Positions 14,982 through 38,186 of a stretch of DNA of 64,000 bases are shown in pieces. Position 1 is the stretch's first letter, and each line of letters begins with the position of its first letter. Made by a program: the position numbers and the translations under genes. The DNA comes from Thermoanaerobaculia bacterium (GTDB lineage: Bacteria > Acidobacteriota > Thermoanaerobaculia > Multivoradales > Multivoraceae), in NCBI GenBank assembly GCA_963664405.1, contig OY761158.1:3680001-3744000 (forward strand), given 5' to 3'. Below the pieces are notes generated by a model. That model was not told the origin of the DNA, searched no databases, and saw nothing but the letters and a program-made list of their open reading frames with translations.

Positions 14982-15007
14982 GTTGAATTCCTCCTAAGGA
15001 ATAACAC

Positions 15008-15037
15008 AAGATAGCGGTTATCTATTCACCAAGTCAA
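15008..15037 (-). promoter_or_regulatory. Possible sigma70 promoter for iscA
   Basis: Minus strand TTGACT-N18-TATCTT with overlapping short inverted repeat AGATAgcggtTATCT. Confidence 0.35.
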
Positions 15038-15064
15038 ATCGGGTAGCGGGATATCATCCAGCCA

Positions 15065-15772: not shown

Positions 15773-15935
15773 TGTCCTGTATCAGTAGTTCGTCACACAA
15801 CTCGCTGGCCCTTTTGCGCGCTGCCGTCGTTGCTCCTCCTCGCAATATTGCCCAATATACCTTCGTCGTAGCGCCTTGGCAGCACCCAAAATGACTGCGC
15901 GATTTATGCAACGAACCACTGATACAGGACACTAG
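15769..15935. repeat. CTAG-bounded long hairpin element, copy B
   Basis: 18-bp perfect terminal IR CTAGTGTCCTGTATCAGT; core AATATTGCCCAATATA; starts at stop of the HAD gene. Confidence 0.88.
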
Positions 15936-15959
15936 GAGCGTGTATCTGGACTCCAATGT

Positions 15960-16290
15960 CAACAGGGGTGGGTCGGTCTTCTTGTTTTTGATAGAGGTTT
16001 CCTTGGTGTGTAATCACAGGCAGTATGGAGGTCGATGGTGAGTCAAGACAGCAGACGTATCTCCGGCCTGTAGTGGGCGATTATTAGCGCCGGGCCATGA
16101 TGAAGAAATGCGCGTGAGGGAGCCGAATCGTCCGAAAGGGCCTCGAAGGCCAACGCTCCTATCGGCTTTTCCCCCCACGCCAGTCTGACTGGAAACCATC
16201 AGAATTCTCTACTCGCGCTGTCGGAGTGTTTGTGAGTGTTCAATTTGAAGTCTTCGGGTGCGTTGGGGTCCAGAGATCGAGGCCAAGGGC
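15960..16290 (-). ncRNA. Putative bridge RNA/seekRNA of the IS1111-type element
   Basis: Non-coding region downstream of the transposase, with stem-loops whose internal-loop segments match the target (TAGGAGCGT; GTCCGA) and the IS-end junction (TTCATCAT; TATCT); RNA boundaries unknown. Confidence 0.75.
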
Positions 16291-17331
16291 TCAGGCCGTG
16301 ACTTGCCGTGGAGGCTGCAGCTGGAAGGAGGTCTCGTGGGTCCAGACCGCCCAGACAACGCGTGCGAGCTTGTTGGCGAGGGCAACGGCGGCCCGGTTCC
16401 GTCCCCGCGAGCTCTCGACTCTGAGGGCCCACTGTTCGAGCCTACCGGCGGGTCCCTTTCTCCTCGCCCAGCTGAGCACCGACCTGGCGCCATGAATGAG
16501 GAGAGTTCGTAAGTACGCGTCCCCGCGTTTGCTGATCCTGCCGAGCCACCGCCGAGCGCCACTGGAGTGTTCCCTGGGAGTCAGTCCGAGATAGCTGGCG
16601 AGATGCCGGCCGCTTTTGAAGCGGCGAATGTCTCCGATCCAAGCGACCATGGCTGTGGCCGTGAGTACGCCTACGCCCTTGATCGTCAGGAGTCGCTTCA
16701 CGGCCTCGTCCTGGCGCGCGAGGGCTTGGATCTGTGCCTCGAGCTCTTGGATCTTCGTGGTCAGCTCGTCGATGTGGTCACAGATGCTTTCGAAAAAGGG
16801 TCGCAAGACGAGCGGGATCTCGGTATCCGGATCCGCGAGCCAGACGCGGACGCGCGGCAGGACCTGGGCGCGTCCCTGGGGCAGAAAGAGCCCGAGCTCT
16901 CGTAGGTGCCCGCGCAGAGCATTGATGTGGGCGGTGCGATCGTCCATGAACGACGAACGGATGCGATGGAGCGTGGTCATCGTCTGCTGCTCGAGCGATT
17001 TGACCGGTACGGGTAGGATGTCCTCGTTTCGATGCGCCTCGAGCATGCCCGTGGTATCCGTTCGATCCGATTTATTGCGCAACACATAGCGCCGGGTGAA
17101 ATGCGGTGGCAGCAGGATCACCTCGTGGCCGAGACTCTGAATACGCCGGCCCCAGTAGTGCGCCGAACCGCAGGCTTCCATGAGGACGGTCGCGGGCTTG
17201 ATCTGCGCGAAGAACCTGAGGAATTTCGCCCTTCGCACGCGCTGCCTCTCGGCGACCTTACCCGGCTCGTAAGACACCGCGATCTCGAAGACATCCTTGG
17301 CGATATCGACTGCGATACGTGTACTCTTCAT
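16291..17331 (-). CDS. IS110-family DEDD transposase/recombinase
   Basis: AVDIAK, MEACG, KSDRTD RuvC-like DEDD; GLTPREHSSG serine loop; GRISKRGD; VALANKLAR. Confidence 0.96.
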   Translation of the reverse strand: MKSTRIAVDIAKDVFEIAVSYEPGKVAERQRVRRAKFLRFFAQIKPATVLMEACGSAHYWGRRIQSLGHEVILLPPHFTRRYVLRNKSDRTDTTGMLEAHRNEDILPVPVKSLEQQTMTTLHRIRSSFMDDRTAHINALRGHLRELGLFLPQGRAQVLPRVRVWLADPDTEIPLVLRPFFESICDHIDELTTKIQELEAQIQALARQDEAVKRLLTIKGVGVLTATAMVAWIGDIRRFKSGRHLASYLGLTPREHSSGARRWLGRISKRGDAYLRTLLIHGARSVLSWARRKGPAGRLEQWALRVESSRGRNRAAVALANKLARVVWAVWTHETSFQLQPPRQVTA

Positions 17332-17420
17332 CGTGGACTCCCTTTCTACGATCAACGTTTGCGACTTAGGTGACCCCTGGCACATAGATGCCGAAGTCAC
17401 CGGGGAGTCCATTTCATCAT

Positions 17421-17499
17421 CCGAGAATTCGGACAGGCGAGTAGTTCTTAGGCGGGGATGGGCCGGAGAACGGGCCGAAGGCGCGTTTTCTGGGGCTAG
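17421..17499 (+). repeat. Right part of a 91-bp CTAG-bounded REP-like repeat split by the IS (left part 15932-15943)
   Basis: 15932-15943 joined to 17421-17499 reconstitutes the reverse complement of 27392-27482 with ~4 mismatches. Confidence 0.9.
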
Positions 17500-17564
17500 G
17501 CTCAGACGAGGGTGGTGATCGCCCTCGTTCTCGAGGATCCCGGTGATACGATCGCCGATCCCTG

Positions 17565-18161
17565 ATGACGGAAGCGGGAGCCAGAGAACCGGCCAGCGGC
17601 CAGATTGAAGTGATCAGTGGTGGAATGTTCTCGGGCAAGAGCGAGGAGCTGCTTCGTCGCCTCCGACGAGCGGTGATCGCGCGGCAGAAGGTTCAGGCCT
17701 TCAAGCCAGCGGCCGACACTCGGCACGCCCCCCAGCGACTGATTACGCGTGACAATCGCGAAGTCTCCGCCATGTCGGTGGGTGACAGCACCGAGCTTGC
17801 GCGAGTTCTCGCGCCCGACGTTCAAGTGATAGGAATCGACGAGCCGCAGTTTTTCGACGAGGGGCTTATAACCCTCTCGTCCACCCTGGCCGATCAGGGC
17901 GTGAGGGTGATCATCGCTGGACTCGATCAGGACTTCCTGCGTCGACCCTTCGGACCGATGCCTGGCCTCTTGGCACTGGCCGAGTTCGTCGACAAGATGC
18001 ACGCGATCTGCGTGGTTTGTGGATCTCGTGCTCACTTTACCCAGCGCATTGCGGGCGGAGCCGAGCTGGTGCAGGTTGGCGACGACGACTACTACGAGGC
18101 TCGCTGCCGTACCTGCTATGAGCTTGGTCCGCGGCCGAAGGCGGCTAGCCTGCCGAGATGA
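17565..18161 (+). CDS. tdk: Thymidine kinase
   Basis: GGMFSGKS P-loop, IDEPQF, AGLDQDF, CVVC…YEARCRTC. Confidence 0.96.
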   Translation: MTEAGAREPASGQIEVISGGMFSGKSEELLRRLRRAVIARQKVQAFKPAADTRHAPQRLITRDNREVSAMSVGDSTELARVLAPDVQVIGIDEPQFFDEGLITLSSTLADQGVRVIIAGLDQDFLRRPFGPMPGLLALAEFVDKMHAICVVCGSRAHFTQRIAGGAELVQVGDDDYYEARCRTCYELGPRPKAASLPR

Positions 18162-18194
18162 TGCCTAGGACACGACGGCTATCGTGTCCTTCTT

Positions 18195-18362
18195 CTAGTG
18201 GACCGTAACACCCAAACGTTGAGCCCCTGAGCGGCCCTCGCGGCCGATCTCTGCGTTACGCTTCCTCGACATAGTCCCCGCTATGCCTGCGTCAGCGCGC
18301 CTTGATCTCGACCACGAATGACTCACTCAGCCACTAAACGTTCGAGTGTTACGGTCCACTAG
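18195..18362. repeat. CTAG-bounded long hairpin element, copy C
   Basis: 17-bp perfect terminal IR CTAGTGGACCGTAACAC; core CATAGTCCCCGCTATG; near-identical to copy A. Confidence 0.9.
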
Positions 18363-18366
18363 TTCC

Positions 18367-19026
18367 TTACCTTCGTTCTAGGCATGTCTTGGAGATACTC
18401 GCCGAGAGTGCAGCTCGGAGAGGGGCCACGTCAGTCGAGGTGCCGAGGTCGTGGCCAACGCCGGGGATCGCCTCAATTACTACGGCCTTTCCCCAATTCG
18501 ACGCGGCCCCGCGCAAGACCTTTTCCGGAGTCAGATCGTCGTTCTCGCCGAAAATGACTGCGGTCGGCGCCGACTCGAGCTGCCAGGAGGCAGCGTCGTA
18601 ATGAGAAATGGGGGGTGCCAATAGAAGATGAGCATGGATCTCGAGATCGGCGGCTTGCTGCGTGCCTGCCAAGGTTGCGGTTACCACCGCACCGAAGGAA
18701 TAGCCGGCGAGGCAGAGCGGCAGGCCGGGGTTGCGTCGACGCAGCTCCGACGCGCTGACCAGGAGGTCGAAGCGTTCTCCGTTGCCGCTGTCGTGGCTGC
18801 CGGAGCTGTGCCCGACACCGCGGAAATTGAAGCGAAGGGTGGCGGCTCCGGCAGCCAGCAAGGCGCGCTCGGTCTCGAGCACTACTCGGTTCTGCATGTT
18901 GCCACCATAGAGGGGGTGAGGGTGCGAGATGACGGCACACAGCCGCGGGTCACCGCGTGGCAGTGCGAGCTCGGCCTCGAGGTCGCCGGCAGGTCCGCTG
19001 AGGGCGATAGGGTTGTGAACCGCCAT
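18367..19026 (-). CDS. Alpha/beta hydrolase
   Basis: HPHPLYGG, RFNFRGVG, GYSFG nucleophile elbow, GHD. Confidence 0.88.
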   Translation of the reverse strand: MAVHNPIALSGPAGDLEAELALPRGDPRLCAVISHPHPLYGGNMQNRVVLETERALLAAGAATLRFNFRGVGHSSGSHDSGNGERFDLLVSASELRRRNPGLPLCLAGYSFGAVVTATLAGTQQAADLEIHAHLLLAPPISHYDAASWQLESAPTAVIFGENDDLTPEKVLRGAASNWGKAVVIEAIPGVGHDLGTSTDVAPLRAALSASISKTCLERR

Positions 19027-19535
19027 CAAGGAGCTGGAGAAGATCCCTCGATGAGGCGAAACGCCTTAGCCACGGCTTCCTTGGCGGACGCTGCCCGCGG
19101 GATCTCTCCGAGGCCTTGGCCGTCTGGTCCTTCAACGCTCCAGCTCTCGAGTAGAACCAGTGGGATCTGATACTTCATTGCCAGACCGATCTCCGAGAGA
19201 GTGCCCCATTCACCCCCAATGGCAATGACGGCGTTACTCGAGAGGACGATGACCTGGTTCCGCACCTGACCCATCCCGGTGTAAACGACGAAGTCCAGAT
19301 GAGGATTGGGTTTAGAGCTCTCCGGTCCGGTACCCGGAAAGATGCCGAGAGTCGTTCCGCCTGCTGTCTTGGCACCCGAGCAGGCGGCTTCCATGACGCC
19401 GGCGCCTCCGCCGCATACCAGCACGGCATCGAAGCGGGCCAGCTGCCGGCCGGCTTCGAAAGCGAGCTTGGTCGCCGCCTCTGAGCACCGCGTACCTCCG
19501 ACAATGCCGACTGTGCGGCGCCGTTGCTCGGTCAT
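19026..19535 (-). CDS. TIGR00725/LOG-family protein
   Basis: CGGGAGVMEAA, RNQVIV, GEWGTLSEI. Confidence 0.88.
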   Translation of the reverse strand: MTEQRRRTVGIVGGTRCSEAATKLAFEAGRQLARFDAVLVCGGGAGVMEAACSGAKTAGGTTLGIFPGTGPESSKPNPHLDFVVYTGMGQVRNQVIVLSSNAVIAIGGEWGTLSEIGLAMKYQIPLVLLESWSVEGPDGQGLGEIPRAASAKEAVAKAFRLIEGSSPAP

Positions 19536-19586
19536 CTGCGTGGTATCCTACCCCGTCCCGCCACTGGGAGAGACCCCCCTCAGGTA

Positions 19587-20186
19587 GTGCCTACGCCGCG
19601 GACAGACGAACCCCTCGTGCCTGCCAATCGTTCCGACGCAGATTTGGTCGCGCTCGTCGAGCAGCAGGACCAGGCCGCGCTGGCCCACCTCTATGAGAAA
19701 TTTTCCGGAGTTCTGTTGGCCCTGATCTCCGGGATTCTCGGCAGATCCGGAGATGCAGAGGAGGTGCTCCAAGAAGTGTTCATGCAAGCCTGGCGGCAGG
19801 CGGACCGCTACGACGCCTCGCGCTCCTCGGTGTCCAATTGGCTCTCTCTGATTGCGCGAAGCCGCGCCATCGATCGCCTACGAAGCCGGAACGTGATGCA
19901 GCGGACTGCAACGGCCGCCTACGCGGAAAAGCGCGATGACAATGCATCCCCTGAGGGCTCGCGGAACGTACTGTACTCGGAGAGAAGGACAAGGATTCGA
20001 GCCTCTCTCGCCGAGCTTCCGAAGGAGCAGGCCGAGGTTATCGAGCTGGCCTTCTTCAAAGGCATGACCCAGAGCGAGATTGCTGATTCGACCGGAATCC
20101 CGCTCGGAACCGTAAAGACTCGTACCTTGTTGGCAATGAAAAAGCTTCGTGTCGCACTACAATCCGAGCTGAGGGACCTCCTGTGA
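19587..20186 (+). CDS. ECF RNA polymerase sigma factor (SigK-like); start approximate
   Basis: AEEVLQEVF, WLSLIARSRAIDRLR, TQSEIA…IPLGTVKTR. Confidence 0.92.
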   Translation: MPTPRTDEPLVPANRSDADLVALVEQQDQAALAHLYEKFSGVLLALISGILGRSGDAEEVLQEVFMQAWRQADRYDASRSSVSNWLSLIARSRAIDRLRSRNVMQRTATAAYAEKRDDNASPEGSRNVLYSERRTRIRASLAELPKEQAEVIELAFFKGMTQSEIADSTGIPLGTVKTRTLLAMKKLRVALQSELRDLL

Positions 20187-21007
20187 GCGATCGAGAAGAC
20201 GCCATCCTGGAGCGAGTCCTGCGCCAGGTCGAGAACGGTGGTCTCGAGGACCCGACTCTGGATCTCGAAGTCGAGGATCGTGCTACCTGGCGTGAGCTCT
20301 CCGAGCTGGTGACTTTGCTGCCCTACGCCTTGGACCCGATCGAGCCAGATCCGGCGGTGAAGGCCTCGCTGATGTCACGCCTCGACGAGAACCGAGTCTC
20401 TGTCGATGAGCCTTCCGCAACTCTGCCCTTTCCAGCTCCAGCTCCCAACTCGATGCGCTCGTTGCAGTTTCTCGCGGCTGCTCTCGGCGTTCTTGCTCTC
20501 GGCCTCGCGCTTCTATCAGGATGGATGTTCCGCGGTAGCCAGCTCCGCGAAGACACGATCTCTCGTCTGAACGCCGCGCTGATTGCTAGTAGCCGGCAGC
20601 AGGTGGAGCTTGGCCCCACTTATGAGCAGCTGGGAGCCATGCGCTCGGTGGTGACATCTTCGGGCATGAGTATCTGCCCGCTTCGCCCGTGGGGCGACAG
20701 CCCGGCGCAGCCGATCGCCCGCGGCGTCATGTACTTTGATGGCGCTAAGCAAAGGTGGCTGTTGACGGCGCGAGGGCTAGAGCCTTGCGACAAGGGCTCC
20801 AAATATGCGCTGTGGTTCATGGTCGGCGAGAAGGCTGTGCGCGGAGGTAGTTTCGAGGTTGAACCGAACCTCGCGGTCACTCTTGGCGCCGATCAGATGC
20901 CCGAAGGCACCACGGCTGTTCTGCTCACCCTCGAGGCCGATGCCGACGCGCCGGAGCCCACCGGCCCCAGGATCCTCTTCGGCGACGAGACCGAAGAGAT
21001 GCTCTGA
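20183..21007 (+). CDS. Anti-sigma factor (RskA-like)
   Basis: Coupled to the sigma gene; single TM helix; C-terminal YALW…LTLE…EPTGP. Confidence 0.8.
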   Translation: MSDREDAILERVLRQVENGGLEDPTLDLEVEDRATWRELSELVTLLPYALDPIEPDPAVKASLMSRLDENRVSVDEPSATLPFPAPAPNSMRSLQFLAAALGVLALGLALLSGWMFRGSQLREDTISRLNAALIASSRQQVELGPTYEQLGAMRSVVTSSGMSICPLRPWGDSPAQPIARGVMYFDGAKQRWLLTARGLEPCDKGSKYALWFMVGEKAVRGGSFEVEPNLAVTLGADQMPEGTTAVLLTLEADADAPEPTGPRILFGDETEEML

Positions 21008-21181
21008 TCGATCCGGCGGGGGCTCGGATCACTTCCGAGGGCGGCGCGATAGACTGCTTCCTCTTGGGCGCTCGGTCTTCGCCGATCCTGCGGGTCGGAA
21101 TGTGGATCTTGTTCGAGTTGTTTCCATAAGTAACGGGTTCTCGGCGAAGAGCGAACCGAGAAGCTTTTGAAAGGTGTGTCG

Positions 21182-21874
21182 ATGTTCTATTTCGATCCGA
21201 TCTACTTCGTCGTCTTGGCGCCGGCCATGTTGTTCTCTCTTTGGGCCAGCTACCGAACCAAATCGGCGTTCACCAAGTACTCCAAGGTCCGTGCTACGAG
21301 CGGCCTGACCGGTGCCGAGGCGGCTCGGCGACTCCTCGCCTCGGCTGGCATAAACGATGTCGAGATCGTGCGCACCGCTGGAACGCTTTCGGATCACTAC
21401 AACCCCGCCACCAAGAAGCTGGCCCTTTCAGATTCCGTTTACAGCCAGCCCTCGATTGCGGCGATCGGCGTTGCCTGCCACGAGGCGGGGCATGCCATTC
21501 AGCACGCGAAACACTATGCCCCGCTGTGGGCTCGCTCAGTGCTCGTCCCTAGTGCCGGCATCGGCTCCAAGCTGGGCTATATCGTCATGTTTCTCGGCCT
21601 GATTCTCCAGATCACGCCGCTCTTTTTGGTGGGCGTCGGTCTCTTCTCGCTGGTTCTCCTCTTCCAGCTGGTGACTCTTCCGGTGGAATTCGACGCTTCG
21701 GCACGAGCCAAGAGCCTCGCTTTTTCACAGGGGCTGATCCTCGAGAACGAGCGCGCTGGCGTGGCGAAGGTGCTCAACGCGGCGGCCCTCACCTACGTCG
21801 CCGCGGTGGTGACCTCGCTGCTGACCCTTCTCTACTACCTGATGCGGTCTGGGCTCCTCGGCGGCCGCCGATAA
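21182..21874 (+). CDS. Membrane zinc metallopeptidase (YugP/Zn_peptidase_2 family)
   Basis: LSDHYNP, CHEAGHAIQH, TLPVEFDAS, AAALTYVA. Confidence 0.92.
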   Translation: MFYFDPIYFVVLAPAMLFSLWASYRTKSAFTKYSKVRATSGLTGAEAARRLLASAGINDVEIVRTAGTLSDHYNPATKKLALSDSVYSQPSIAAIGVACHEAGHAIQHAKHYAPLWARSVLVPSAGIGSKLGYIVMFLGLILQITPLFLVGVGLFSLVLLFQLVTLPVEFDASARAKSLAFSQGLILENERAGVAKVLNAAALTYVAAVVTSLLTLLYYLMRSGLLGGRR

Positions 21875-22038
21875 GGTGCCGTGTCTCCGACATGGCTTAC
21901 CAATATCTCGGCCCCTTTTGCCCGCTGCCGTCGTCGCGACTCGTCGACATATTCCCAATATGCCTGCCTCGTCGCTCCTTGACAGCGAACAAAATGACCT
22001 CGAGCTCTTGGCAAGCCATGTCGGAGACACGGCACTAG
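21873..22038. repeat. Long hairpin element, copy D (left CTAG degenerate)
   Basis: 23-bp perfect IR GTGCCGTGTCTCCGACATGGCTT (21876-21898 / 22013-22035); core CATATTCCCAATATG; ends in CTAG. Confidence 0.88.
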
Positions 22039-22061
22039 CGCCTGCCGTTCAGGGCACCCCA

Positions 22062-23411
22062 CTAGACGGGCTCCCCTAGCAGGCCGACTAGAAGCTCTTG
22101 CTTCTCGGCAAGCAGTGTCTTCGTGGTCGCCTCGGCGACCAGACGCAGGAGTGGTTCTGTGTTCGACGGCCGGACATTGAACCACCAGTCCGGGTACTCC
22201 ACCGTGATGCCGTCTACGTAGTCGATGCGTCCGTCGGCGAAACGCTCGCTGAGCTCGGTGATAGCGCCACTCTTGTCTTCAACTTCGAAGTTGATCTCTG
22301 GAGTTTTGGCGTAACGCAGGAGTGGAGCGACGATCTTCGACATCGCTATCCCGCGTCGGCGTAGAAGGTTGAGCACCTCGAATACGGCCATCAGGGCACA
22401 GTCGGCGTTGAAGTTATCGCGGAAGTAGTAGTGGCCCGCCAACTCTCCGCCGAAGATTCCCTCGTGCTTTCGAAGCGTTGCTTTGATGAAAGAGTGCCCA
22501 ACCCGCTCCCGCACCGGTATGCCGCCGCACTCGGCGATGTACTCAGCCACGGCTCTCGAGGAGCGTAGATCGTAGATGACAGCCTTGCCCGGCTCCCGGG
22601 CGAGGAGTTCGCCGGCGATCAGGGCGGTTGCCAGATCACTGCCGATCGGCTCGCCTTTCTCGTCAACGAAGGCGGCGCGATCCGCGTCGCCGTCGAAGGC
22701 AACTCCCAGATCGGCTCCGGTCTCTCTGACTCTTGAACAGAGGTCGGCCAGGTTCTCCAACTTGAGCGGGTTCGCCTCGTGATTGGGAAAACTTCCGTCG
22801 AGATCGAAGTACAGTAAGTCGAGATCGACGCCGGTCTGCTCGAGGAGCGACCGATAGATACACCCCATGCCATTGGCCGCGTCGACGACGATCTTCAATC
22901 GTCGAGCCGTTGGAAGCTCCTCGAGGAAGCCGAGCAGATGCTGGGAATAGGCACCGGAGATGTCAGTGCTGCGGAGCTCGCCGTTCTCCGACCCAGCACG
23001 TTGCGGTGGAGCCTCCACCAACCCCTCCAGGCGCAGGATTCCGTTGTCGCCGGATACAGGGCGCGCATTCTCGAGGCTGAACTTGAATCCGTTGTAGCGA
23101 GGGGGGTTGTGGCTTGCAGTGACCTGAATGCCGCCGCTGGCGCCGAGGTGGCCGACCGCGAAGTAGTTCATCGGTGTGGTCACGAGGCCGATGTCGACAA
23201 CGTCGACGCCTCGGGAACGAATTCCCTTGATCAGTGCGGATTGCAAGGGCTCGCTATGCTGCCGCATGTCGCGACCTACGACGATCGGTGCGGTGCGGCC
23301 ACCCTTGTCGAGAATGTCCGGGAAGGCCACTCCGACCGCTTCAGCCGTCGCCTCGTCGATCTCTTCGGGGTAGATCCCGCGGACATCGTAAGCCTTGAAG
23401 ATTCCGGCCAT
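22062..23411 (-). CDS. Phosphomannomutase/phosphoglucomutase
   Basis: FKAYDVRG, TASHNP, FDGDADR, GELAGH, RPSNTEP. Confidence 0.95.
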   Translation of the reverse strand: MAGIFKAYDVRGIYPEEIDEATAEAVGVAFPDILDKGGRTAPIVVGRDMRQHSEPLQSALIKGIRSRGVDVVDIGLVTTPMNYFAVGHLGASGGIQVTASHNPPRYNGFKFSLENARPVSGDNGILRLEGLVEAPPQRAGSENGELRSTDISGAYSQHLLGFLEELPTARRLKIVVDAANGMGCIYRSLLEQTGVDLDLLYFDLDGSFPNHEANPLKLENLADLCSRVRETGADLGVAFDGDADRAAFVDEKGEPIGSDLATALIAGELLAREPGKAVIYDLRSSRAVAEYIAECGGIPVRERVGHSFIKATLRKHEGIFGGELAGHYYFRDNFNADCALMAVFEVLNLLRRRGIAMSKIVAPLLRYAKTPEINFEVEDKSGAITELSERFADGRIDYVDGITVEYPDWWFNVRPSNTEPLLRLVAEATTKTLLAEKQELLVGLLGEPV

Positions 23412-23632
23412 TCTCAGACCCTTTCTAGCTGGAAGGAGCGCTTGCGATCATGAGGGGCAGGTACGAGCGCGGAGATCGCCGAAGCAGGGATGCGGAGCAT
23501 AGCAAAGGCACCTGAAGGCGCCCAGGGGGTAGGCCTTTTCCAGCGTTCCTTTTTTGGCTTATACTCCCCCAACTCTCCTCCGGGAGACGCGGAAACAGGC
23601 TCCACCGAGGGGCCAGTAGGAATACCCCTGAG

Positions 23633-24100
23633 ATGGGCCGTGAGCTGGTTATTATCTGGGCGGGTCGGCATCGCAGGGATCGATTTGGCGAGTCGATCAA
23701 GGACTATCAGCGGAGAATCCGAGGCCACGTGCCGATCACTGATCGATGGATCAAGTCTCGCAGGTCCGGCGACGATGAACGGAGAAAGAAAGACGAGGGA
23801 GAAGCGCTCCTTGCGGCCTTGCCTGCTACGAGCTGGGTGGTGGCTATGGACGGAGGCGGGCGCGCGCTCACTTCGAGAGGCTTCTCCGATCACCTCGAGA
23901 GCCTCCAGGAGCGGTGGCCCCATGCCGTGGTATTCGCTCTCGGTTCGGACCTTGGATTGGATCCGTTGGTGTTGGAGCGTGCGAACGAGGTACTTTCTCT
24001 CGGCCCGATGACATTGGCTCACGAGTTGGCACGGTTGGTTCTGTACGAGCAGATTTATCGGGCAATGGCAATTAGGAGCAGCATCAACTACCACCGCTAG
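23633..24100 (+). CDS. rlmH: 23S rRNA m3Psi1915 methyltransferase
   Basis: SLGPMTLAHELARLVLYEQIYRA…YHR SPOUT signature. Confidence 0.93.
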   Translation: MGRELVIIWAGRHRRDRFGESIKDYQRRIRGHVPITDRWIKSRRSGDDERRKKDEGEALLAALPATSWVVAMDGGGRALTSRGFSDHLESLQERWPHAVVFALGSDLGLDPLVLERANEVLSLGPMTLAHELARLVLYEQIYRAMAIRSSINYHR

Positions 24101-24131
24101 TCGCGGTGGTTCAAACGCGGGGAAAAGCGCG

Positions 24132-24800
24132 ATGGCGAAGACCAAGAGGGCAGCTACGAAATCGCGGGGCAAGGTCGCGGAAAAGGGCAGAGCGGGCGCC
24201 GCGAAGAAGGCCACGGCCAAGAAGGCCACGGCCAAGAAGACAGCATCGAAGAGGGCGGCATCGAAGAAGGCAGCGCCGAAGAAGGCAGCGCCAAAGAAGG
24301 CAGCGCCAAAGAAAACGGCCTCTAATAGAGTGGTTGTGAAGAAGGTCAGTGGAAAGCCGGCTGCGAAGAAGGCTTCGGCTCGCAAGACGGCTCGCAAGAC
24401 GGCTCGCAAGACGTCCAAGAAGGCGACAGGCCAGGGCGGCAGAAAGCCGTCGGGGCTCGCGAAAGTTCTCGAGGCGAAGCTTAGTGAGCAGCGTGACGAG
24501 ATTTTGAACCTCTACCGGCGCGATTTGGGTCTCGGCGTCGAGGTCAATCACGAGGGCGACGACGAGATTGATCGGGCTAACTTCGACTCCAATCGAGATC
24601 TTGCCCTTGCGCTTTCCAGCGGTGAGCGCGAGACGTTGTTGCAGATCGAGGAGGCGTTGACGAGAATCGAGCACGATATCTACGGCGAGTGTGTTTTCTG
24701 CACCAAGCCCGTAGGGGATGAGCGGCTACGCGTCATACCGTGGGCTCGCCACTGTGTCTCGTGCCAGGAGCTTGAGGAGAAGGGTCTCTTAGAGCAATGA
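24132..24800 (+). CDS. dksA: DksA/TraR zinc-finger protein with histone H1-like Lys/Ala-rich N-terminus
   Basis: AKKAT/PKKAA/ARKT repeats; DEIDRA coiled-coil tip; CVFC…RL..IPWARHCVSC. Confidence 0.8.
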   Translation: MAKTKRAATKSRGKVAEKGRAGAAKKATAKKATAKKTASKRAASKKAAPKKAAPKKAAPKKTASNRVVVKKVSGKPAAKKASARKTARKTARKTSKKATGQGGRKPSGLAKVLEAKLSEQRDEILNLYRRDLGLGVEVNHEGDDEIDRANFDSNRDLALALSSGERETLLQIEEALTRIEHDIYGECVFCTKPVGDERLRVIPWARHCVSCQELEEKGLLEQ

Positions 24801-26248
24801 CGCAGGCCTCTACCGAGAGCGATCTAGTCGGACGCGTCCGGGAAGGCGAGGCCCGCCACCTTTACTTGATCTCCGGAGAGCCGGTGCTGTCGGAGGCGGC
24901 GGGCCGGCGTCTCGGAGAGGCGCTGGCGGCTGCCGCAAGAGCGGAGCTGCATGTGCATCGGCGGCCAACCGATTTGGTGGAGATCTTGAGCGATCTGCGC
25001 ACCTTCTCGATGTTCGAATCCGCCAAGGTCACGCTGGTCGTCGAGAGCGGAGTCCTTTCGGATCAGAAAGCGGCCGCCTACCTTCTTGATCAGGCGGCCG
25101 AGGGATTGCCGATCGAGCCGGATGAGCCTCTCGTAGGTGGCTCGCGCCAGGCGGCCGGTCGCCTTTTGCAGGTTTGTAGGCTGTTCCATCTCGATCCCGC
25201 TGGTAAGCCGCCGCCACTCGTTCTCGAGGATCTACCCGCTTGGGTATTCGAAGGCGGTGCGGCGCCGGGTGCCAAAGGTCGCCGAAAGCGGCGAACGAAG
25301 TCCGCGGCGAACGAGCTCAAGGATCAGCTGGCGACGCTGCTGACCGCGGCAGGGGAGCAGGGCCTGGAAGGGTGGGCTGAGAGCGACGCTACGGATCTCG
25401 CCGTCGTCGCGGAGGAGGGCTTGCCGGCTGGGCATGCCTTGGTTCTCTGCGAGGCTGCGGCATCGCCTAGCCACCCTGTAGTGGAGCGCCTACAGCGAGA
25501 CGGTGCTTATCTCGAGTTGGCGCACCTGGAGGCCGACAGGCGCGGTAGATGGCAGGGGCTCCGGCAGATTGCCGAAGAGATGGAGCGAGCTACTTCGTGC
25601 AGGATCGCGCAGGACGCGCTCAACGAGTTGGCGCGGCGCACTCTGCGACATCGATCGCGGCGGGGCGCCGAGGGTATCGACCCGGACTCGAGTGCTCGCT
25701 TCGCTGCCGAGTATCGCAAGCTGGCTTCGATCACTGAGGGGCGAACGATCGAGGTCGATCTGGTGCGGACAGAAGTAGAGGATCGAGGCGAGGAGGACAT
25801 ATGGGCGCTCCTCGACGCGATCGGTGCGGGTCGCAGCGGAGAGGCCCTAGATCGCCTCCGCCGCCTTCAGGCGTCGGCCGATGACCCAGTCGCTACCCGT
25901 CTCGCGTTCTTCACTCAGTTGGCGCTGTTCTGTCGCACCCTGGTTGCCGTCTCCGGCATGATGGAAGTGACGGGCGTACCCGCCGGGGAGCGTAGTTACA
26001 ATCGCTTCAAGGACCGCTATGCCTCGAAGTTACAAGGGGCCTTGCCGGGGAGCGAGTTTGAGCCGATCGGGGCGCTTCACCCGTTCCGTCTGCATCGGGC
26101 CTACTTGTCGGCCGGCAGAATGTCTCGTCAAGCTCTGGCTGGGCTCCCGGCCTTGGTGCTCGATACCGAAATGAGATTGAAAGGGGAGAGCACCGACCCC
26201 GAGGCCGCCCTGAGCGGCTTCGTCGCCTGGCTCGCCAAGGGTGCCTGA
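24797..26248 (+). CDS. holA: DNA polymerase III delta subunit-like protein
   Basis: LYLISGE, TFSMF..AKVTLV, EYRKL, IWALLDAI, MRLKG; longer than typical. Confidence 0.6.
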   Translation: MTQASTESDLVGRVREGEARHLYLISGEPVLSEAAGRRLGEALAAAARAELHVHRRPTDLVEILSDLRTFSMFESAKVTLVVESGVLSDQKAAAYLLDQAAEGLPIEPDEPLVGGSRQAAGRLLQVCRLFHLDPAGKPPPLVLEDLPAWVFEGGAAPGAKGRRKRRTKSAANELKDQLATLLTAAGEQGLEGWAESDATDLAVVAEEGLPAGHALVLCEAAASPSHPVVERLQRDGAYLELAHLEADRRGRWQGLRQIAEEMERATSCRIAQDALNELARRTLRHRSRRGAEGIDPDSSARFAAEYRKLASITEGRTIEVDLVRTEVEDRGEEDIWALLDAIGAGRSGEALDRLRRLQASADDPVATRLAFFTQLALFCRTLVAVSGMMEVTGVPAGERSYNRFKDRYASKLQGALPGSEFEPIGALHPFRLHRAYLSAGRMSRQALAGLPALVLDTEMRLKGESTDPEAALSGFVAWLAKGA

Positions 26249-27065
26249 GCTTCCCGAAGTCGAGGTGCTGGCTCGCTCGCTGGCGCCTCACCTCATAGGG
26301 GACTCTATTGACCTCATCGAGGTATACAACCCGGCTCTTCGTGAGCAGGTGGATACGGCAAACCTAAAGCGCTGCGTTGAAGGTCGTCGGGTTCTCACCG
26401 TCGAGCGGCGTGCGAAGTACCTGCTGGTCGGCGTCCAGGGCGACCAGACTCTGGTGGTACACCTGGGCATGAGCGGCCGCCTCACTCTGGCTGCCGCGGG
26501 CACGGCAAGGGAGCCCCATGAGCACGCAGCCTTCTATTTGTCCTCGGGACGAAAGTTGCGTTTTCGCGATCCGCGGCGCTTCGGCCTGCTGCTCGGTCTG
26601 CCTACCGGGAGTCTTCCCCTCGATCGGCACTTTTGCCACCTAGGGCAAGAGCCTGTCGACGAGTCCTTCTCCGCGGTTACGTTGGTAGATGCGGCACGGG
26701 GCCGCAGAGTAGCCGTGAAGTCCTTCCTGATGGACGCCAAGGTGGTGGTCGGCGTAGGCAACATTTACGCCTGCGAGACTCTATTCCGAGCCGGCGTTCA
26801 TCCTTTACGCTCGGTGGCGAGAATCTCGCTGAAGCGATGGGAGAGGATCGCGGGATCTCTGGTAGAGGTGATCCGGGCTGCGATCGACGAGGGTGGAACG
26901 ACTCTGAACGACTTCGTCGACGGTTCGGGGGACCCTGGCTACTTCCAGGTCTCCCTCTCGGTCTACGGTCGCGAAGGTCAGCCTTGCCCGCGGTGCGCCA
27001 CCGCGGTCAGAAGGAGAGTGCAGCAGGGGCGCAGCACTTTCTACTGCGCTCGCTGTCAGACTTGA
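26241..27065 (+). CDS. mutM: Formamidopyrimidine-DNA glycosylase
   Basis: MPELPEVE, HLGMSG, DPRRFG, GVGNIY, C-terminal zinc finger. Confidence 0.97.
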   Translation: MPELPEVEVLARSLAPHLIGDSIDLIEVYNPALREQVDTANLKRCVEGRRVLTVERRAKYLLVGVQGDQTLVVHLGMSGRLTLAAAGTAREPHEHAAFYLSSGRKLRFRDPRRFGLLLGLPTGSLPLDRHFCHLGQEPVDESFSAVTLVDAARGRRVAVKSFLMDAKVVVGVGNIYACETLFRAGVHPLRSVARISLKRWERIAGSLVEVIRAAIDEGGTTLNDFVDGSGDPGYFQVSLSVYGREGQPCPRCATAVRRRVQQGRSTFYCARCQT

Positions 27066-27074
27066 GGAGCTCTA

Positions 27075-27332
27075 TCAGGAGCCGCCGCCACGCGGCTGTC
27101 TCGGCCGGGCTTCGTTGACGGTCAGATCGCGGCCTCCGAAGGAGGAGGCATTCAGAGCGGAGATCGCGCTCTCCCCACCGTCGCCCATCTCGACAAAACC
27201 GAAGCCCCTGAGCCGTCCGGTCTCTCGGTCGGTGATCAAGCTCACCGATTCCACTTGACCGTAATCGGCGAACAAAGCTCGCACCTCGTCTTCGGTGGCG
27301 GTGAAAGGTAGGTTGCCGACGTAGATTCTCAT
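27075..27332 (-). CDS. RRM RNA-binding protein
   Basis: IYVGNL (RNP2), RGFGFVEM (RNP1), VNEARPR. Confidence 0.94.
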   Translation of the reverse strand: MRIYVGNLPFTATEDEVRALFADYGQVESVSLITDRETGRLRGFGFVEMGDGGESAISALNASSFGGRDLTVNEARPRQPRGGGS

Positions 27333-27391
27333 TGGGTCTCCTTTCTTCCGCTGGGCGCTGCGCTCATTGTCTCAGCCGGCGCCTGTTTCAG

Positions 27392-27482
27392 CTAGCCCCG
27401 GAAAACGGGCCTGCGGCCCGTTCTCCGGCCCATCCCCCCCTAAGAACTACTCGCCTGTCCGAATTCTCGGACACGCTCCTAG
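27392..27482 (-). repeat. Intact 91-bp CTAG-bounded REP-like repeat (empty IS target)
   Basis: CTAG at both ends; hairpins TGTCCGA-ATTC-TCGGACA and AACGGGCC-TGC-GGCCCGTT. Confidence 0.88.
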
Positions 27483-27577
27483 CCTCCAGAAAGGGTCGCT
27501 ATCTTCTCGTCCGGGTGGGTAATATGACGCCGCGGACGGAGTGACCCTCTCGTGGGCATGAGATCCAGCAGGCTAAC

Positions 27578-28600
27578 ATGGCGTTGCGCGAGCCTCAACA
27601 TCGAGCCGACGACTCTCGTCTTCCCCGAGCTTCGCGATGGCGCTCATGGATGGTTCAGCTGGGGGTGGTTGCCGGTTGCGCGGTGCTCCTGTATCTGGCA
27701 CTGGCCTTTTGGACCGACTTCGAGCGCGTCGGGCAGTCTCTGCGAAGTTTCCCTCCGAGGGCCGTTCTGCCGGTCTTGGCCCTGGTCATCGTGGGGTTGT
27801 TCTTGCGCGGCTTGCGCTGGCTCTACTACACTCGCCTGCTTCGCCTCGATTTGCCGTCAGGTCCCAGCTTCCTCGCCTTTCTCGCCAGCTTCGCCTTCAC
27901 CGCGACCCCCGGCAAAGTAGGAGAGGTCGTAAAGTCGCTGTTACTGCGCCGGCGTTTCGGCTCCCGTGTCTCCAAGACCGCTGGAGTCTTGGTTGTCGAG
28001 CGTGTGACCGATCTACTCGCGGTGCTCCTGCTTGCCTGCTTAGGCCTCAGCACCGTAGCCGGTCGAGGCTGGGTCATAGCGGCCAGCTCTTTGCTCCTGG
28101 TGGGGGCGATGGCCTTTCTGCTCAGTGAGCGTATTCATGCGCCTGCTCTTGCCGCGCTAACTCGGCTGCCAGGCCTGGGGCGCTTCGCTGTCTCGCTGCC
28201 GGAGCTCGTCGGCAGCAGTCGGCAATTGCTCGGTCCAGCGGGTCTCGGGGTGGGGTTGGGCCTGGCGGTGCTTGCCTGGTCCTGCGAGGCTGTGGCTTTG
28301 TGGATCGTGCTGTCCGCTCTTGGGGCGGAGGTTGCTTGGACCGGGGCCTTTCTAGCCTTCGGCCTCTCGACACTCCTCGGTGTCCTGTCGATGTTGCCTG
28401 GAGGGATTGGTGGTTTCGAAGCGAGTATGGTCTTCATATTCCAGCAGCTGGCCGTCGCATCGACGACCGCGGTCGCCGCCACTCTAATTTTCCGCCTGGC
28501 AACCCTCTGGGGAATGAGCCTTCTGGGCCTCTTCTTTCTTGGCGTCTGGATGGCGATCTTCGGTCTCGGCGAGGAGGGAGAAGTAAGCAGTAAGCAGTAA
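27578..28600 (+). CDS. Lysylphosphatidylglycerol synthase TM-domain / flippase-like membrane protein
   Basis: TPGKVGEVVK, VERVTD, LPGGIGGFE, multiple TM helices. Confidence 0.85.
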   Translation: MALREPQHRADDSRLPRASRWRSWMVQLGVVAGCAVLLYLALAFWTDFERVGQSLRSFPPRAVLPVLALVIVGLFLRGLRWLYYTRLLRLDLPSGPSFLAFLASFAFTATPGKVGEVVKSLLLRRRFGSRVSKTAGVLVVERVTDLLAVLLLACLGLSTVAGRGWVIAASSLLLVGAMAFLLSERIHAPALAALTRLPGLGRFAVSLPELVGSSRQLLGPAGLGVGLGLAVLAWSCEAVALWIVLSALGAEVAWTGAFLAFGLSTLLGVLSMLPGGIGGFEASMVFIFQQLAVASTTAVAATLIFRLATLWGMSLLGLFFLGVWMAIFGLGEEGEVSSKQ

Positions 28601-28744
28601 AGGCAAGGAATGGAGTTGACCTTGGAGCTACCCTTGTCTTTACTGAATGCTGATGGCTTCCTACTTCTCCTCTCCTCCCTGCCTTGACTGCTACTTCCCC
28701 TTCGGCGCTGGGGGGCTGTCCTGACTGGCGAGGGCCAGATGCGA

Positions 28745-30523
28745 CTAGATAGAGAAAGGCCAGAGGACAGGGATCAACAGGGTGGAGATGATCCAGAAGC
28801 CGATCTTGAGCGGCGCTCCCGCCCACACGTAGTCGAGGAATCGATAGCCACCGGGGCCGAAGACCATGGCGTTGGTCTGGTAGCCCATCGGGGTGAGGAA
28901 GCTCGAGGAGGCGGCGAAGGCCACAGCGAAGAGGAAGGGCTTCGCATCGAGGCCCAGGGTGGCTGCGACGGTGATGGCGATGGGTGCCATCACGACCGCC
29001 GTCGAGTTGTTCGAGGCGATCTCGCTGAGCAACGCAGTCGCGATGTAGATGACCGCCAACACGGTGTAGGGCCCGAGCTCGGTACCTAGTCCAGCGATGG
29101 CGGATCCCAGGCGTTCGGTGAGGCCGGTGTTCTCCATTGCCGAGCCCAGGGGCAGGATCGAAGCGAGGAGGAAGATGACCGTCCAGTTTATGGCCTTGTA
29201 AGCCTCTTGGATGGTGAGGCTGCGAGTGACGATCATTGCGACCGCGCCGAGAAGCGATGCTTTGAGGAGGGGCATCGCCCCGGTCGCACTCAGGATGACG
29301 ACGGCGGGAATGATCGTGACCGGTAGCCACCACAACTTCGGCAGGCGAAGCTTGAGCTCGAGCTCTTGCAAAGGGATGAAGTCTTCGTTCTGCGAGATCG
29401 CTTCAATGCGGGTACGGGGGCCGAAGACCAGTAGGCAATCCCACTGCTTGAGGGGGATCGAGGCGAGTCGCTCGCGGATCACATCGCCGGTGCGGTTCAA
29501 GGCAAGCACGAAGCAGCCATGGATACGTCGGAAGTCGACCTCTTTGAGGTTACGACCGATCAGGCTCGAGCTCGGGGCGAGTTGGAGCTCGAAGAGGATG
29601 TTGCTTTCATCCGCGAGGTCGTCGTCGTGGAGCTTGACGTCGGTGAGCAGCTCTAGATCGTAGTGGTCGCGGAAACTGACGATGTCCTCCATCGACCCGC
29701 GCACGATGATCTCGTCCAAAGCCTCCAGTTTTGTATTGCGCAGATCTACCGAGAAGCGCTCGCCGTCGCGAAGCACTTCGAGCACGTTGAGATCGAAGCG
29801 CTCGCTGATCTGCTCGTCGACTACGGTGCGGCCGACCAGCCCTCCTCCTTTCGGGATCCGCAGCTCAGTGAGGTAGGCACCCATCTGGTACTTACGGGTC
29901 AGACTGGAGATGATGCTGCGAGAGGGGAGTAGGCGAAGCGGAACGAGCAGAACGTAGATCAGCCCGCCACCGAAGAGTATGAGCCCCAGCGATGCGAACT
30001 CGAAAACCGAGAAGGCGCCGACCCCGGACTGCTCCGAGATCGAGCTTACGATCAGATTCGTCGAGGTGCCTATGAGAGTGCAGGTCCCTCCCATGATGCT
30101 GACGTAGGAGAGCGGCAAGAGGATCTTCGAGGGACTGAAACGATAGTGCTTCGCCAGCTGGATGCCGACCGGCATGAAGATGGCAACTGCCGCCGTGTTG
30201 TTGATGAAAGCGGAGAGCACGCCCGAGGTCAGAAGCAGAAGCGTGCTTCCTCGCCAGTGAGTGGGTCCCGAAATGCGCGAAATGCGGTGCGCGAACTGGT
30301 TGATCAAGCCGGTGCTAGTGAGCCCATAACTGAGGATGAACATCATCATGACCGTGATTACGGCAGGGTTGCTGAAGCCGGCGATGGCTTCCTCGGGGGT
30401 GATCAACCCGCAGACCAGGAGTGCGCCTAGGCAGGTGAAGGCGGTGGCGTCGATCGGCATCCACTCGAATGCGAAGCCCGCAAAGGTGAGGGCGATGATG
30501 CCGATCAGAAGAATCTGGTCCAT
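28745..30523 (-). CDS. SLC13/citrate-sulfate permease with TrkA-C domains
   Basis: SAFINNTA, GGTCTLIGTSTN, TPMGYQTN..V.GPGGY. Confidence 0.92.
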   Translation of the reverse strand: MDQILLIGIIALTFAGFAFEWMPIDATAFTCLGALLVCGLITPEEAIAGFSNPAVITVMMMFILSYGLTSTGLINQFAHRISRISGPTHWRGSTLLLLTSGVLSAFINNTAAVAIFMPVGIQLAKHYRFSPSKILLPLSYVSIMGGTCTLIGTSTNLIVSSISEQSGVGAFSVFEFASLGLILFGGGLIYVLLVPLRLLPSRSIISSLTRKYQMGAYLTELRIPKGGGLVGRTVVDEQISERFDLNVLEVLRDGERFSVDLRNTKLEALDEIIVRGSMEDIVSFRDHYDLELLTDVKLHDDDLADESNILFELQLAPSSSLIGRNLKEVDFRRIHGCFVLALNRTGDVIRERLASIPLKQWDCLLVFGPRTRIEAISQNEDFIPLQELELKLRLPKLWWLPVTIIPAVVILSATGAMPLLKASLLGAVAMIVTRSLTIQEAYKAINWTVIFLLASILPLGSAMENTGLTERLGSAIAGLGTELGPYTVLAVIYIATALLSEIASNNSTAVVMAPIAITVAATLGLDAKPFLFAVAFAASSSFLTPMGYQTNAMVFGPGGYRFLDYVWAGAPLKIGFWIISTLLIPVLWPFSI

Positions 30524-31006: not shown

Positions 31007-31867
31007 ATGTCCACCGAGGTCCAATTGTCGAGCCCCTGGCCAGCTCGCCTTGCCTGCGTGGCCTTGCCTTCGGTCGCGGTGGTCGGCAGTGTTGGAGCCT
31101 ACTTCCGGAATCGACTCCAGCACTCCCGACTTTTTGTTCCTAGCCTTTATCCACACGGCGTTTGGGACCGTGGCTCCCATGGCCTCCCGGTCGAAGACGA
31201 GTGGTTCGAGACCGAAGACAAAGTCAAGCTCCACGCTTGGTGGATCCGCAGCGAGCGAGCGAGGGGTACGGTTCTCTACTGCCATGGCAACAATGGCAAC
31301 ATCACCCACCGGATCGGTGTGTTGGAGCAGCTGTGGCGGATGCGCCTCAACGTCTTTGCGTTCGACTATCGCGGTTATGGAAGAAGCGAAGGGGAGCCCA
31401 GCGAGGAAGGTCTGTTCCGTGACGTCCGCGGCGCGTTGGATCATCTGAGTGGGAATCTGAATCAGAGCTCGGAGTCGATCTTGCTCTTTGGTCACTCTCT
31501 GGGGGGTGCGGTGGCTATCGATGGGGCACTCCATCGGCCGGTGGCGGGTCTGGTCGTGCAGTCGAGCTTCACTCACATCAGGGACATGACTAGGGCCCTC
31601 TTTCCTCGCCTTCCACTTCATTGGGTGGCTCGCAATCAGTTCAAGAGCATCGACAAAGTAGGTCGGCTGGAGATCCCGAAGCTCTTCATCCACGGTACTG
31701 ACGATCCCACCGTGCCGCACCGATTGGGTCGCCGGCTCTTCGGGGCTGCAGCCGCTCCCAAAGAGTGGTTCGAAGTGCCGAGGGCGGGGCACAACGACGT
31801 CTACCGTGCCGGCGGCGTACGTTATCTCTGGCGTCTTCATCGCTTCACGAGGCGATGTTTAGCCTAG
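31007..31867 (+). CDS. Alpha/beta hydrolase (ABHD13/BEM46-like)
   Basis: HGNNGN, DYRGYGRS, GHSLGG, HGTDD, GHND. Confidence 0.9.
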   Translation: MSTEVQLSSPWPARLACVALPSVAVVGSVGAYFRNRLQHSRLFVPSLYPHGVWDRGSHGLPVEDEWFETEDKVKLHAWWIRSERARGTVLYCHGNNGNITHRIGVLEQLWRMRLNVFAFDYRGYGRSEGEPSEEGLFRDVRGALDHLSGNLNQSSESILLFGHSLGGAVAIDGALHRPVAGLVVQSSFTHIRDMTRALFPRLPLHWVARNQFKSIDKVGRLEIPKLFIHGTDDPTVPHRLGRRLFGAAAAPKEWFEVPRAGHNDVYRAGGVRYLWRLHRFTRRCLA

Positions 31868-31914
31868 CCCCTTCGGCCCGTTCTCTGGTCCATCCCCACC
31901 TGAAAGCTACTCGC
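31864..31914 (-). repeat. Degenerate partial copy of the 91-bp REP-like repeat
   Basis: CTAGCCCC…CGGCCCGTTCTCTGGTCCATCCCCACCT…CTACTCGC aligns to 27392-27454. Confidence 0.65.
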
Positions 31915-38024: not shown

Positions 38025-38186
38025 ACCAGCGTTTCCAAAGTTCGCGCACATATCTCGGGCCCTTCTGCCCGCTGGCGTCGTTTCGCCTCCTCGACATATT
38101 GCCCAATATGCCTGCGTCGGCGCGCCTAGCCAGCGAACAGAATGACCTCGAGCTATGCAGCACGAACTTTGGAAACGCTGGTCTAG
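38021..38186. repeat. CTAG-bounded long hairpin element, copy E
   Basis: 24-bp perfect terminal IR CTAGACCAGCGTTTCCAAAGTTCG; core CTCGACATATTGCCCAATATGCCTGCGTC. Confidence 0.9.

Follow-up and report, generated by a model that had tools for sequence, protein, structure and literature searches.

The stretch of DNA analysed here (the window, 64,000 nucleotides) holds a short repeat split by an insertion, together with an intact copy of the same repeat, and the question that the locus raises is what selects the insertion site. The initial annotation took the insert for an IS110 element that uses a 91-bp repeat family as its landing pad, and it laid weight on a hairpin in the target. The explanation that fits best, to which we give a probability of about 0.87, is an RNA-guided insertion sequence of IS1111 type (IS-A) that integrates into a head shared by two repeat families.

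The target site and the other copies of the repeat in the window comprise the following features.

15932 to 15943, plus strand: left half of the split repeat head, CTAGGAGCGTGT, which is the right target flank in IS orientation
17421 to 17499, plus strand: rest of the split family-A repeat, with the remaining head, the 3' hairpin arm, a G+C-rich hairpin and the closing CTAG
27392 to 27482, minus strand: intact empty family-A repeat, with the 16-mer target at 27466-27481 and the predicted insertion point at 27470/27471
31864 to 31914, minus strand: decayed partial family-A copy, head and hairpin absent

On the plus strand the occupied site reads CTAGGAGCGTGT (15932-15943), the insert (15944-17420) and then CCGAGAATTCGG... 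or CCGAGAATTCGGACAGG... from 17421 onward. Excising the 1477 bp of the insert in silico produced a 91-mer with 87 of 91 positions identical to the reverse complement of 27392-27482. Both the claim that removing the insert restores the repeat, with its exact coordinates, and the claim of an empty site in the same window therefore hold. A repeat finder independently recovered the pair as arms at 17420-17499 and 27392-27471 (80 nt, 95% complementary). The insertion point falls after TGT and before CCGA, within the left arm of TGTCCGA-GAAT-TCGGACA, the hairpin, in agreement with the description of an insertion in the hairpin arm that duplicates at most one T. As this single T (15943 or 17420) can be attributed either to the IS or to the target, there is no real target duplication. 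The third copy, which had been described as decayed and without the target hairpin, is real but partial: the repeat finder matched 31867-31914 to 17437-17484 (85% complementary) and 31870-31914 to 27410-27454 (84% identical), a span of 45-48 nt. Unrelated sequence takes the place of its head and hairpin, and it is thus not a target. The occupied copy is intergenic, lying between a HAD-hydrolase gene and a thymidine-kinase gene, and so is the empty copy at 27392-27482, with an Fpg/MutM gene (26241-27065) to one side and an LPG-synthase-like gene (27578-28600) to the other.

Among 24 sequencing runs listed for the stretch, seven contain at least 0.82 of the sampled words (two studies, none of the seven RNA). 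The contigs of four runs over 14000-29000 stop inside repeats, and the joints in them connect different repeat copies. Those carrying the IS (15932-17449, 15932-17432 and 15907-17449) fall short of 31 letters on at least one side of it, so none counts as bridging the element. Within these contigs, stopping as they do inside repeats, we looked for joints that leave out 15944-17420, for a circle junction and for any event at 27470/27471, and found none.

A distinct MITE-like family (about 167 bp, with CTAG at its borders and terminal inverted repeats of 35-37 nt) occupies 15769-15935, 18195-18362, 21876-22035 and approximately 38047-38167, and is probably what the initial annotation called the first repeat family. 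Its copy at 15769-15935 abuts the IS target, with one CTAG in common, and the left CTAG of that copy provides the TAG stop of the HAD-hydrolase ORF (15065-15772). The terminal repeat has 46 matches genome-wide, which form 21 pairs 160-189 bp apart; a longer partner element for the family was not found genome-wide.

The insert itself consists of the element and one gene.

15944 to 17420, minus strand: IS-A, an IS1111-type insertion sequence of 1477 bp whose left end (LE) starts ATGATGAAATGGACTCC and whose right end (RE) finishes GGAGTCCAGAT in IS orientation
16291 to 17331, minus strand: transposase gene, 346 aa from the start MKSTRIAVDIAK, called as an ORF with Pfam and NCBIfam matches

The transposase matches the Pfam models DEDD_Tnp_IS110 (PF01548, E 5.2e-11) and, in the C-terminal domain, Transposase_20 (PF02371, E 2.2e-27). 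It scores 316.8 bits against a cut-off of 140 with the NCBIfam model NF033542, named 'IS110 family RNA-guided transposase', and the assignment of the insert to IS110 is thereby confirmed and narrowed to the IS1111 type. The match to the IS621 transposase (8wt6) is weak and restricted to the C-terminal part (residues 182-332, E 1.5e-10). The translation of 16291-17412 contains GLTPREHSSG, which fits the pattern GL-P----S(T)G, a trait of the C-terminal domain in the IS1111 group according to the available text of PMC11187229. The 347 bp of non-coding DNA downstream of the transposase gene (15944-16290), as against 89 bp upstream (17332-17420), give the element an IS1111-type layout, in which excerpts of PMC11187229 and PMC11208160 likewise place the longer non-coding region downstream of the gene. 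The subterminal inverted repeat, TGGACTCC/GGAGTCCA, is perfect over 8 bp and has extensions of 3 bp on the right (GAT) and 9 bp on the left. The parts of the literature available to us describe extensions of 3 bp on the right and 6-7 on the left, so that the left extension of IS-A is longer, and give repeat lengths of 7-17 bp (PMC11208160) or 'usually 11-13 bp' (PMC11187229). By its sequence features, IS-A is an IS1111-type member of the IS110 family.

The right end (15944-15975) also has a TTGACA, placed 13 nt before the tip, that IS-B and a MAG relative, both described below, have conserved. If the ends were joined as a circle (LE 17405-17420), TTGACA would stand 17 nt from TGAAAT, a possible junction promoter such as has been described for this family.

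We looked for further copies in the whole genome, a single 6.78-Mb contig that contains the window. IS-A is present three times (two copies at 2663 bits and one at 2638 bits, over 1476 nt), always between GGAGCGTGT and CCGAG. Beyond CCGAG the window copy runs into the 91-bp family A, and the other two run into a second family, B (CCGAGTATTCGTCCTGAGCC...). The prediction that every IS copy would have flanks of the 91-bp family thus held in part: CCGAGAATTC adjoins one of the three IS-A copies and CCGAGTATTC two of them, while the same motif is found at all three. The predicted flanks were incomplete because two of the three copies lie in family B, which shares only its first ~24 bases with family A.

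A second element, IS-B, is 71% identical to IS-A in DNA and 73% in protein, with the same termini, loops and insertion point. Searching the genome with the terminal sequences gave nine LE-pattern and 12 RE-pattern matches. The six LE and six RE matches that belong to IS-A and IS-B all adjoin ...CTCGGA and ACACGCTCCTAG, and the 12 bases of CTAGGAGCGTGT adjoin all three IS-A copies and all three IS-B right ends. The nine other matches comprise a third element, IS-C, and mismatched look-alikes. Together IS-A and IS-B represent seven insertion events, all from one assembly, five of them complete, one IS-B lacking its 5' part and one its 3' part. All seven lie in a single motif, TAGGAGCGTGT/CCGAG, and where the LE junction is preserved the repeat body on that side is of family A in three of six insertions and of family B in the other three. 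Copies inserted in unrelated sequence, named beforehand as the finding that would speak against a fixed target, were sought in the whole-genome end search, and none was found for IS-A or IS-B.

Two loci outside the window deserve mention. IS-C, at G000:C1:592009-596825, has 54% protein identity and a loop GAAAGGC facing a right flank GCCTTTC; the one left end that matches is ~3.5 kb upstream of where its gene starts, and the element may be interrupted or carrying extra DNA. At G000:C1:6025684-6028368 two direct IS-B copies, the upstream one without its 5' part, have exactly one 91-bp family-A repeat between them, and this pair could support recombination between the copies.

What these insertions have in common is thus narrower than a repeat family. 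Families A (91 bp) and B (~128 bp) are both bounded by CTAG and agree only in their first ~24 bases. The 16-mer TAGGAGCGTGTCCGAG from this head occurs 63 times exactly in the genome (heading an A body in 35 cases, a B body in 25 and neither in three), against 0.003 expected, and near-exact empty 16-mers add 14 with one mismatch and 12 with two. BLAST found 67 A bodies, 45 of them with the head, and 73 B bodies, 41 with the head, numbers that bear out the proposal that the IS sits in a multicopy host repeat. The further proposal, that the 91-bp family is the landing pad, has to be revised: two of three IS-A copies are in family B, and the landing pad is the 16-20-bp head common to A and B rather than the 91-bp family as such. 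The units often abut with one CTAG in common and form tandem A-B-A arrays. Short, multicopy, hairpin-bearing and arranged in mosaic tandem arrays, and intergenic at the two window copies, the repeats fit the REP/BIME type. CTAG itself is under-represented in the genome (7,502 observed, 23,230 expected from a base composition of 62.6% G+C), and 325 CTAG sites are in or at the edge of A/B repeats.

The repeat was found in three of the 41 genomes searched, the window's own included. Another genus of the same taxonomic family (genome G004) has related copies whose head is the variant GGAGCCTGTCCGAGTC, and a relative of the IS there adjoins a different sequence; a B-like head occurs in a third genus (genome G001), for which the search gave no transposase match. 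The repeat predates its exploitation by this IS. A safe harbour is the standard view of the target in REP-targeting insertion sequences, and it is reasonable to regard this multicopy host repeat as one for the IS, with both window copies, occupied and empty, intergenic.

How the repeats themselves spread is a separate matter. Matches to the Y1 transposase model PF01797 number 13 in the genome, 12 of them over the cut-off. A RAYT flanked by A/B repeats was not found among them; an A/B fragment lies within 2.5 kb at two of the 13 loci, a single partial copy in each case. With just these two loci near any A/B fragment, a RAYT as mobiliser of the repeats is not supported. Spread of the units by head-to-head recombination was set aside, since the sequence beyond the closing CTAG of a solitary copy is unique and lacks a second head. 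It is conceivable, though we think it unlikely, that the shared 16-24-bp head is a functional handle of the repeats, for example a site for moving CTAG-bounded units or shuffling them into mosaic arrays. If it were, two IS lineages would have adapted their bridge RNA to this handle, and units or segments between occupied heads might be rearranged by the recombinase. In that case, insertions in heads without a hairpin would further count as an exception to any general rule that structure gates the choice of target.

A fixed target of this kind calls for a means of recognition, and the non-coding region downstream of the transposase gene contains a candidate, with the following predicted parts.

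16050 to 16180, minus strand: predicted bridge/seekRNA scaffold with two stem/internal-loop modules, inside the 347-bp downstream non-coding region
16153 to 16161, minus strand: 5' side of the predicted target loop, UAGGAGCGU, a 9-nt exact complement of ACGCTCCTA on the top strand of the right flank (IS orientation)
16127 to 16138, minus strand: 3' side of the predicted target loop, CUUUCGGACGAU, in which UCGGAC reads in the left-flank sense and spans the crossover; the GAU after UCGGAC is conserved
16097 to 16104, minus strand: 5' side of the predicted donor loop in the second consensus module, UUCAUCAU, which is the complement of ATGATGAA at the left end of the IS
16055 to 16068, minus strand: conserved GGCCGGAGAUACGU, one stem strand together with the 3' side of the predicted donor loop; its AGAUAC matches the AGAT of the RE and the next two bases

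In the sense of the transposase, 16166-16122 reads GCCGA-UAGGAGCGU-U-[GGCC UUCGA GGCC]-CUUUCGGACGAU-UCGGC. Since UCGGAC is in the same sense as the left flank, its partner would be the bottom strand, and the 3' guide of IS-A could form six contiguous Watson-Crick pairs, or eight with G-U. The corresponding loop side of IS-B, UUCUCGGAC, gives nine contiguous pairs to a family-A-type flank. The pairing of the 5' guide of IS-A ends 2 nt before the crossover, and the register is not the same in all relatives, with pairing that begins at flank position 1 or at position 3. At the level of sequence, segments complementary to both target strands are present, that for the top strand first. The same order, with the top-strand complement 5' of the bottom-strand match, is given for IS1111 seekRNAs in the available part of PMC11187229.

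The second loop behaves similarly with respect to the ends of the element: a MAG relative has UCCCAU in its donor loop and ATGGGA at its own left end. The GGCCGGAGAUACGU motif is found downstream of a scaffold at exactly seven places in the genome, three in IS-A, three in IS-B and one in IS-C, and the other 17 matches (at most one mismatch) have no scaffold. We aligned seven elements, namely IS-A, IS-B, IS-C, two MAG or metagenome relatives from one search and two from another. Their consensus fold has 33 pairs, 11 with compensatory changes, with conserved stems and loop strands that vary. In this consensus 89.6% of the cells are paired, compared with 81.6% in shuffles and 26-51% in slid-partner controls, and none of 500 shuffles reached any of five measures. 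The covariation energy term is small (-0.46 kcal/mol), and the fold of the single sequence is no more stable than that of shuffles (z = -0.80). A permissive Rfam search of 15500-17900 returned no bridge-RNA family, only three chance-level matches (E 1-5). Taken together, the guides, the donor matches and the consensus point to a bridge/seekRNA with two target guides encoded in the downstream non-coding region.

If the loop does choose the target, it should change with the flank, and relatives of the element allow this comparison. The closest protein relatives are from Marinacidobacterales and Phycisphaeraceae MAGs, and a search of genome contigs with the transposase protein gave six loci, two of which are full copies in one MAG. 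This 57%-identical element, from a Candidatus Marinacidobacterales MAG, has both copies inserted between ...CAACTGCGTCCAGA and ACGCAGTTG, and at the position where IS-A has UAGGAGCGU it carries CAACUGCGU, which complements its own flank exactly. When seven scaffolds were tabulated against five known right flanks, all six loops with a known right flank paired best with their own (9, 9, 7, 9, 9 with one G-U, and 7 contiguous pairs), and Watson-Crick runs to foreign flanks were 2-5. The 3' loop strands showed the same pattern more weakly.

A scan of metagenomes with the RE pattern gave 46 loci. Eleven have the scaffold, ten of these with the conserved donor-loop motif and the eleventh being L053; the other 35, without a scaffold, look like chance or unrelated matches. 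The loop matches its own flank over 10 nt in L051, L060, L080 and L085 and over 9 nt in L083 and L053, and among 812 comparisons of mismatched loci and flanks only 10 reached at least 9. L090 has just five contiguous Watson-Crick pairs, a short run owed to one guide change that would give a G-U pair. L077 has the guide of L060, L080 and L085, but its adjoining flank matches over 4 nt only; the mismatch is due to insertion off target or else to rearrangement of the RE afterwards, and such events do occur in the group.

A further metagenome locus touches the repeat itself. The related IS in L065 adjoins ACAGGCTCCTAG, a variant head of the repeat family seen in G004 (loci L018, L020, L023 and L025). 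Its 3' loop strand is CUCUUCGGACGAU, and the variant flank is ACAGGCTCCTA where the usual one is ACACGCTCCTA, which suggests, as far as these letters go, a sister element retargeted by a single guide change.

The readings that compete with RNA guidance differ in what they ask of the hairpin and of the protein. Of these, the one that survives best keeps the RNA guides as choosers of the sequence and adds the DNA hairpin of family A as an extra determinant, family-B sites being poorer; it is improbable in our estimate. Such a second layer of specificity is reported for ISPpu10, whose target stem-loop plays that part in the available text of a preprint (10.64898/2026.03.19.712850). The insertion point within the hairpin arm in family A would suit it, as would the target of the MAG relative, which is also a palindrome (CAACTGCG-TCCAGA-CGCAGTTG). 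Family B, however, has no 3' arm of the hairpin, with TCGTCCT where A has TCGGACA, and it holds three of the six insertions with a preserved LE, so that the hairpin, on which weight had been placed earlier, is not the determinant. Nor is there a visible preference for the hairpin-bearing family, with 35 empty sites in A against 25 in B. There is no sign that the hairpin is needed; it is not required for insertion, and counts this low would not reveal a modest contribution like that reported for ISPpu10.

Recognition of a REP-like palindrome by the protein alone, or by structure alone, would make the loop matches a coincidence. This was the usual assumption for REP-targeting insertion sequences before 2024, and the bridge RNA here is predicted from sequence. 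Against it, the loop changes with the flank, at the same position of the scaffold, in at least six different relatives, targets without a palindrome are used, and the family model itself is named RNA-guided. We consider this reading barely tenable.

It is equally hard to credit that the shared flanks are part of a larger composite element carrying the repeat, or a footprint of the IS: repeats and IS do co-occur, and at one locus IS-B, a 91-bp repeat and IS-B stand in tandem, but the flanks differ outside the head (an A or B body on one side, unrelated sequence beyond CTAG on the other), a check for the same long flanks on both sides of every copy did not find them, 63 heads are empty, in-silico excision restores a normal repeat, and the repeat is present in two other genera, G004, whose IS relative adjoins a different sequence, and G001 with no transposase match.

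The picture that fits these results best is therefore that of RNA-guided integration into the repeat head. The DEDD transposase would be guided by a bridge/seekRNA from the 347-bp region downstream of its gene. One loop would supply two guides, UAGGAGCGU pairing with one strand of ACGCTCCTA and UCGGAC with the other strand across the crossover, and the second loop, which matches the element's own ends, would act as the donor loop. Integration would then take place between GTGT and CCGAG of TAGGAGCGTGTCCGAG, with no duplication of the target. About 63 exact and about 26 near-exact sites would be available for landing, and insertion there would probably cause little harm. Homology to ISEc11, ISPa11, ISKpn4 and IS621 suggests that the RNA is expressed, is bound by the transposase and steers integration by way of a circular intermediate.

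The known mechanism is unchanged by this, and the locus is an ordinary example of known behaviour. It does offer a clean natural case of site choice by an RNA-guided IS1111-type element in a little-studied phylum; one genome displays the site both occupied and empty, along with the guide loops and a further IS that has diverged but follows the same programme. Half of the insertions lie in the family without the hairpin, which is a small data point on the role of target structure beyond base pairing. For annotation, the reading accounts for the intergenic IS copies and predicts presence/absence polymorphism between strains at ~63 sites. The specifics are modest: two repeat families have a head in common, sites without a hairpin are used, and one programme serves two IS lineages.

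A 2006 paper by Tobes and Pareja, cited in PMC11208160, reportedly deals with REPs as targets of insertion sequences. The closest parallel is ISPa11, an IS1111 element that targets REP sequences of Pseudomonas aeruginosa and for which a seekRNA has been shown (PMC11187229, available text). IS-A resembles it in its DEDD transposase, downstream non-coding region, subterminal repeats and lack of target duplication and, as far as that text describes ISPa11, in its fixed position within a multicopy palindromic intergenic repeat and in the order of the seekRNA guides. It differs in its host, an acidobacterium (Acidobacteriota), in its target sequence and in having a target head common to two families, one of them without a palindrome; its subterminal repeat, at 8 bp, is also shorter than the usual 11-13 bp.

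The sharing of one target by different elements has a precedent too. Excerpts of PMC11187229 describe ISKpn4, ISPst6 and ISPa25 as different IS1111 members with one attC target and the same seekRNA matches. IS-A and IS-B, diverged to 73% in protein, have similarly kept their guide segments and insertion point, although their target is a chromosomal repeat and not an integron attC. ISPpu9 and ISPpu10, IS110 elements of Pseudomonas putida, have several copies in one conserved intergenic REP, according to the parts available of PMC12288879 and 10.64898/2026.03.19.712850. The elements described here likewise have several copies, all in one conserved intergenic repeat. Unlike ISPpu10, for which the target stem-loop is described in that partial text as an extra determinant, they use hairpin-less sites as often as the others. 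Orphan RNA modules like ssr9 were not found in this genome, where the scaffold occurs solely within the seven IS copies.

The comparison with IS621 is more distant. Its bridge RNA has two loops, one for the target and one for the donor, each of which pairs with both DNA strands (PMC11208160, in the available part), and the RNA predicted for IS-A has the same division into one target and one donor loop. In IS621, going by the same partial text, the RNA comes from the left end, upstream of the gene, whereas that predicted for IS-A lies downstream. The core dinucleotide of IS621 is CT; in IS-A the element and its target have one ambiguous base in common.
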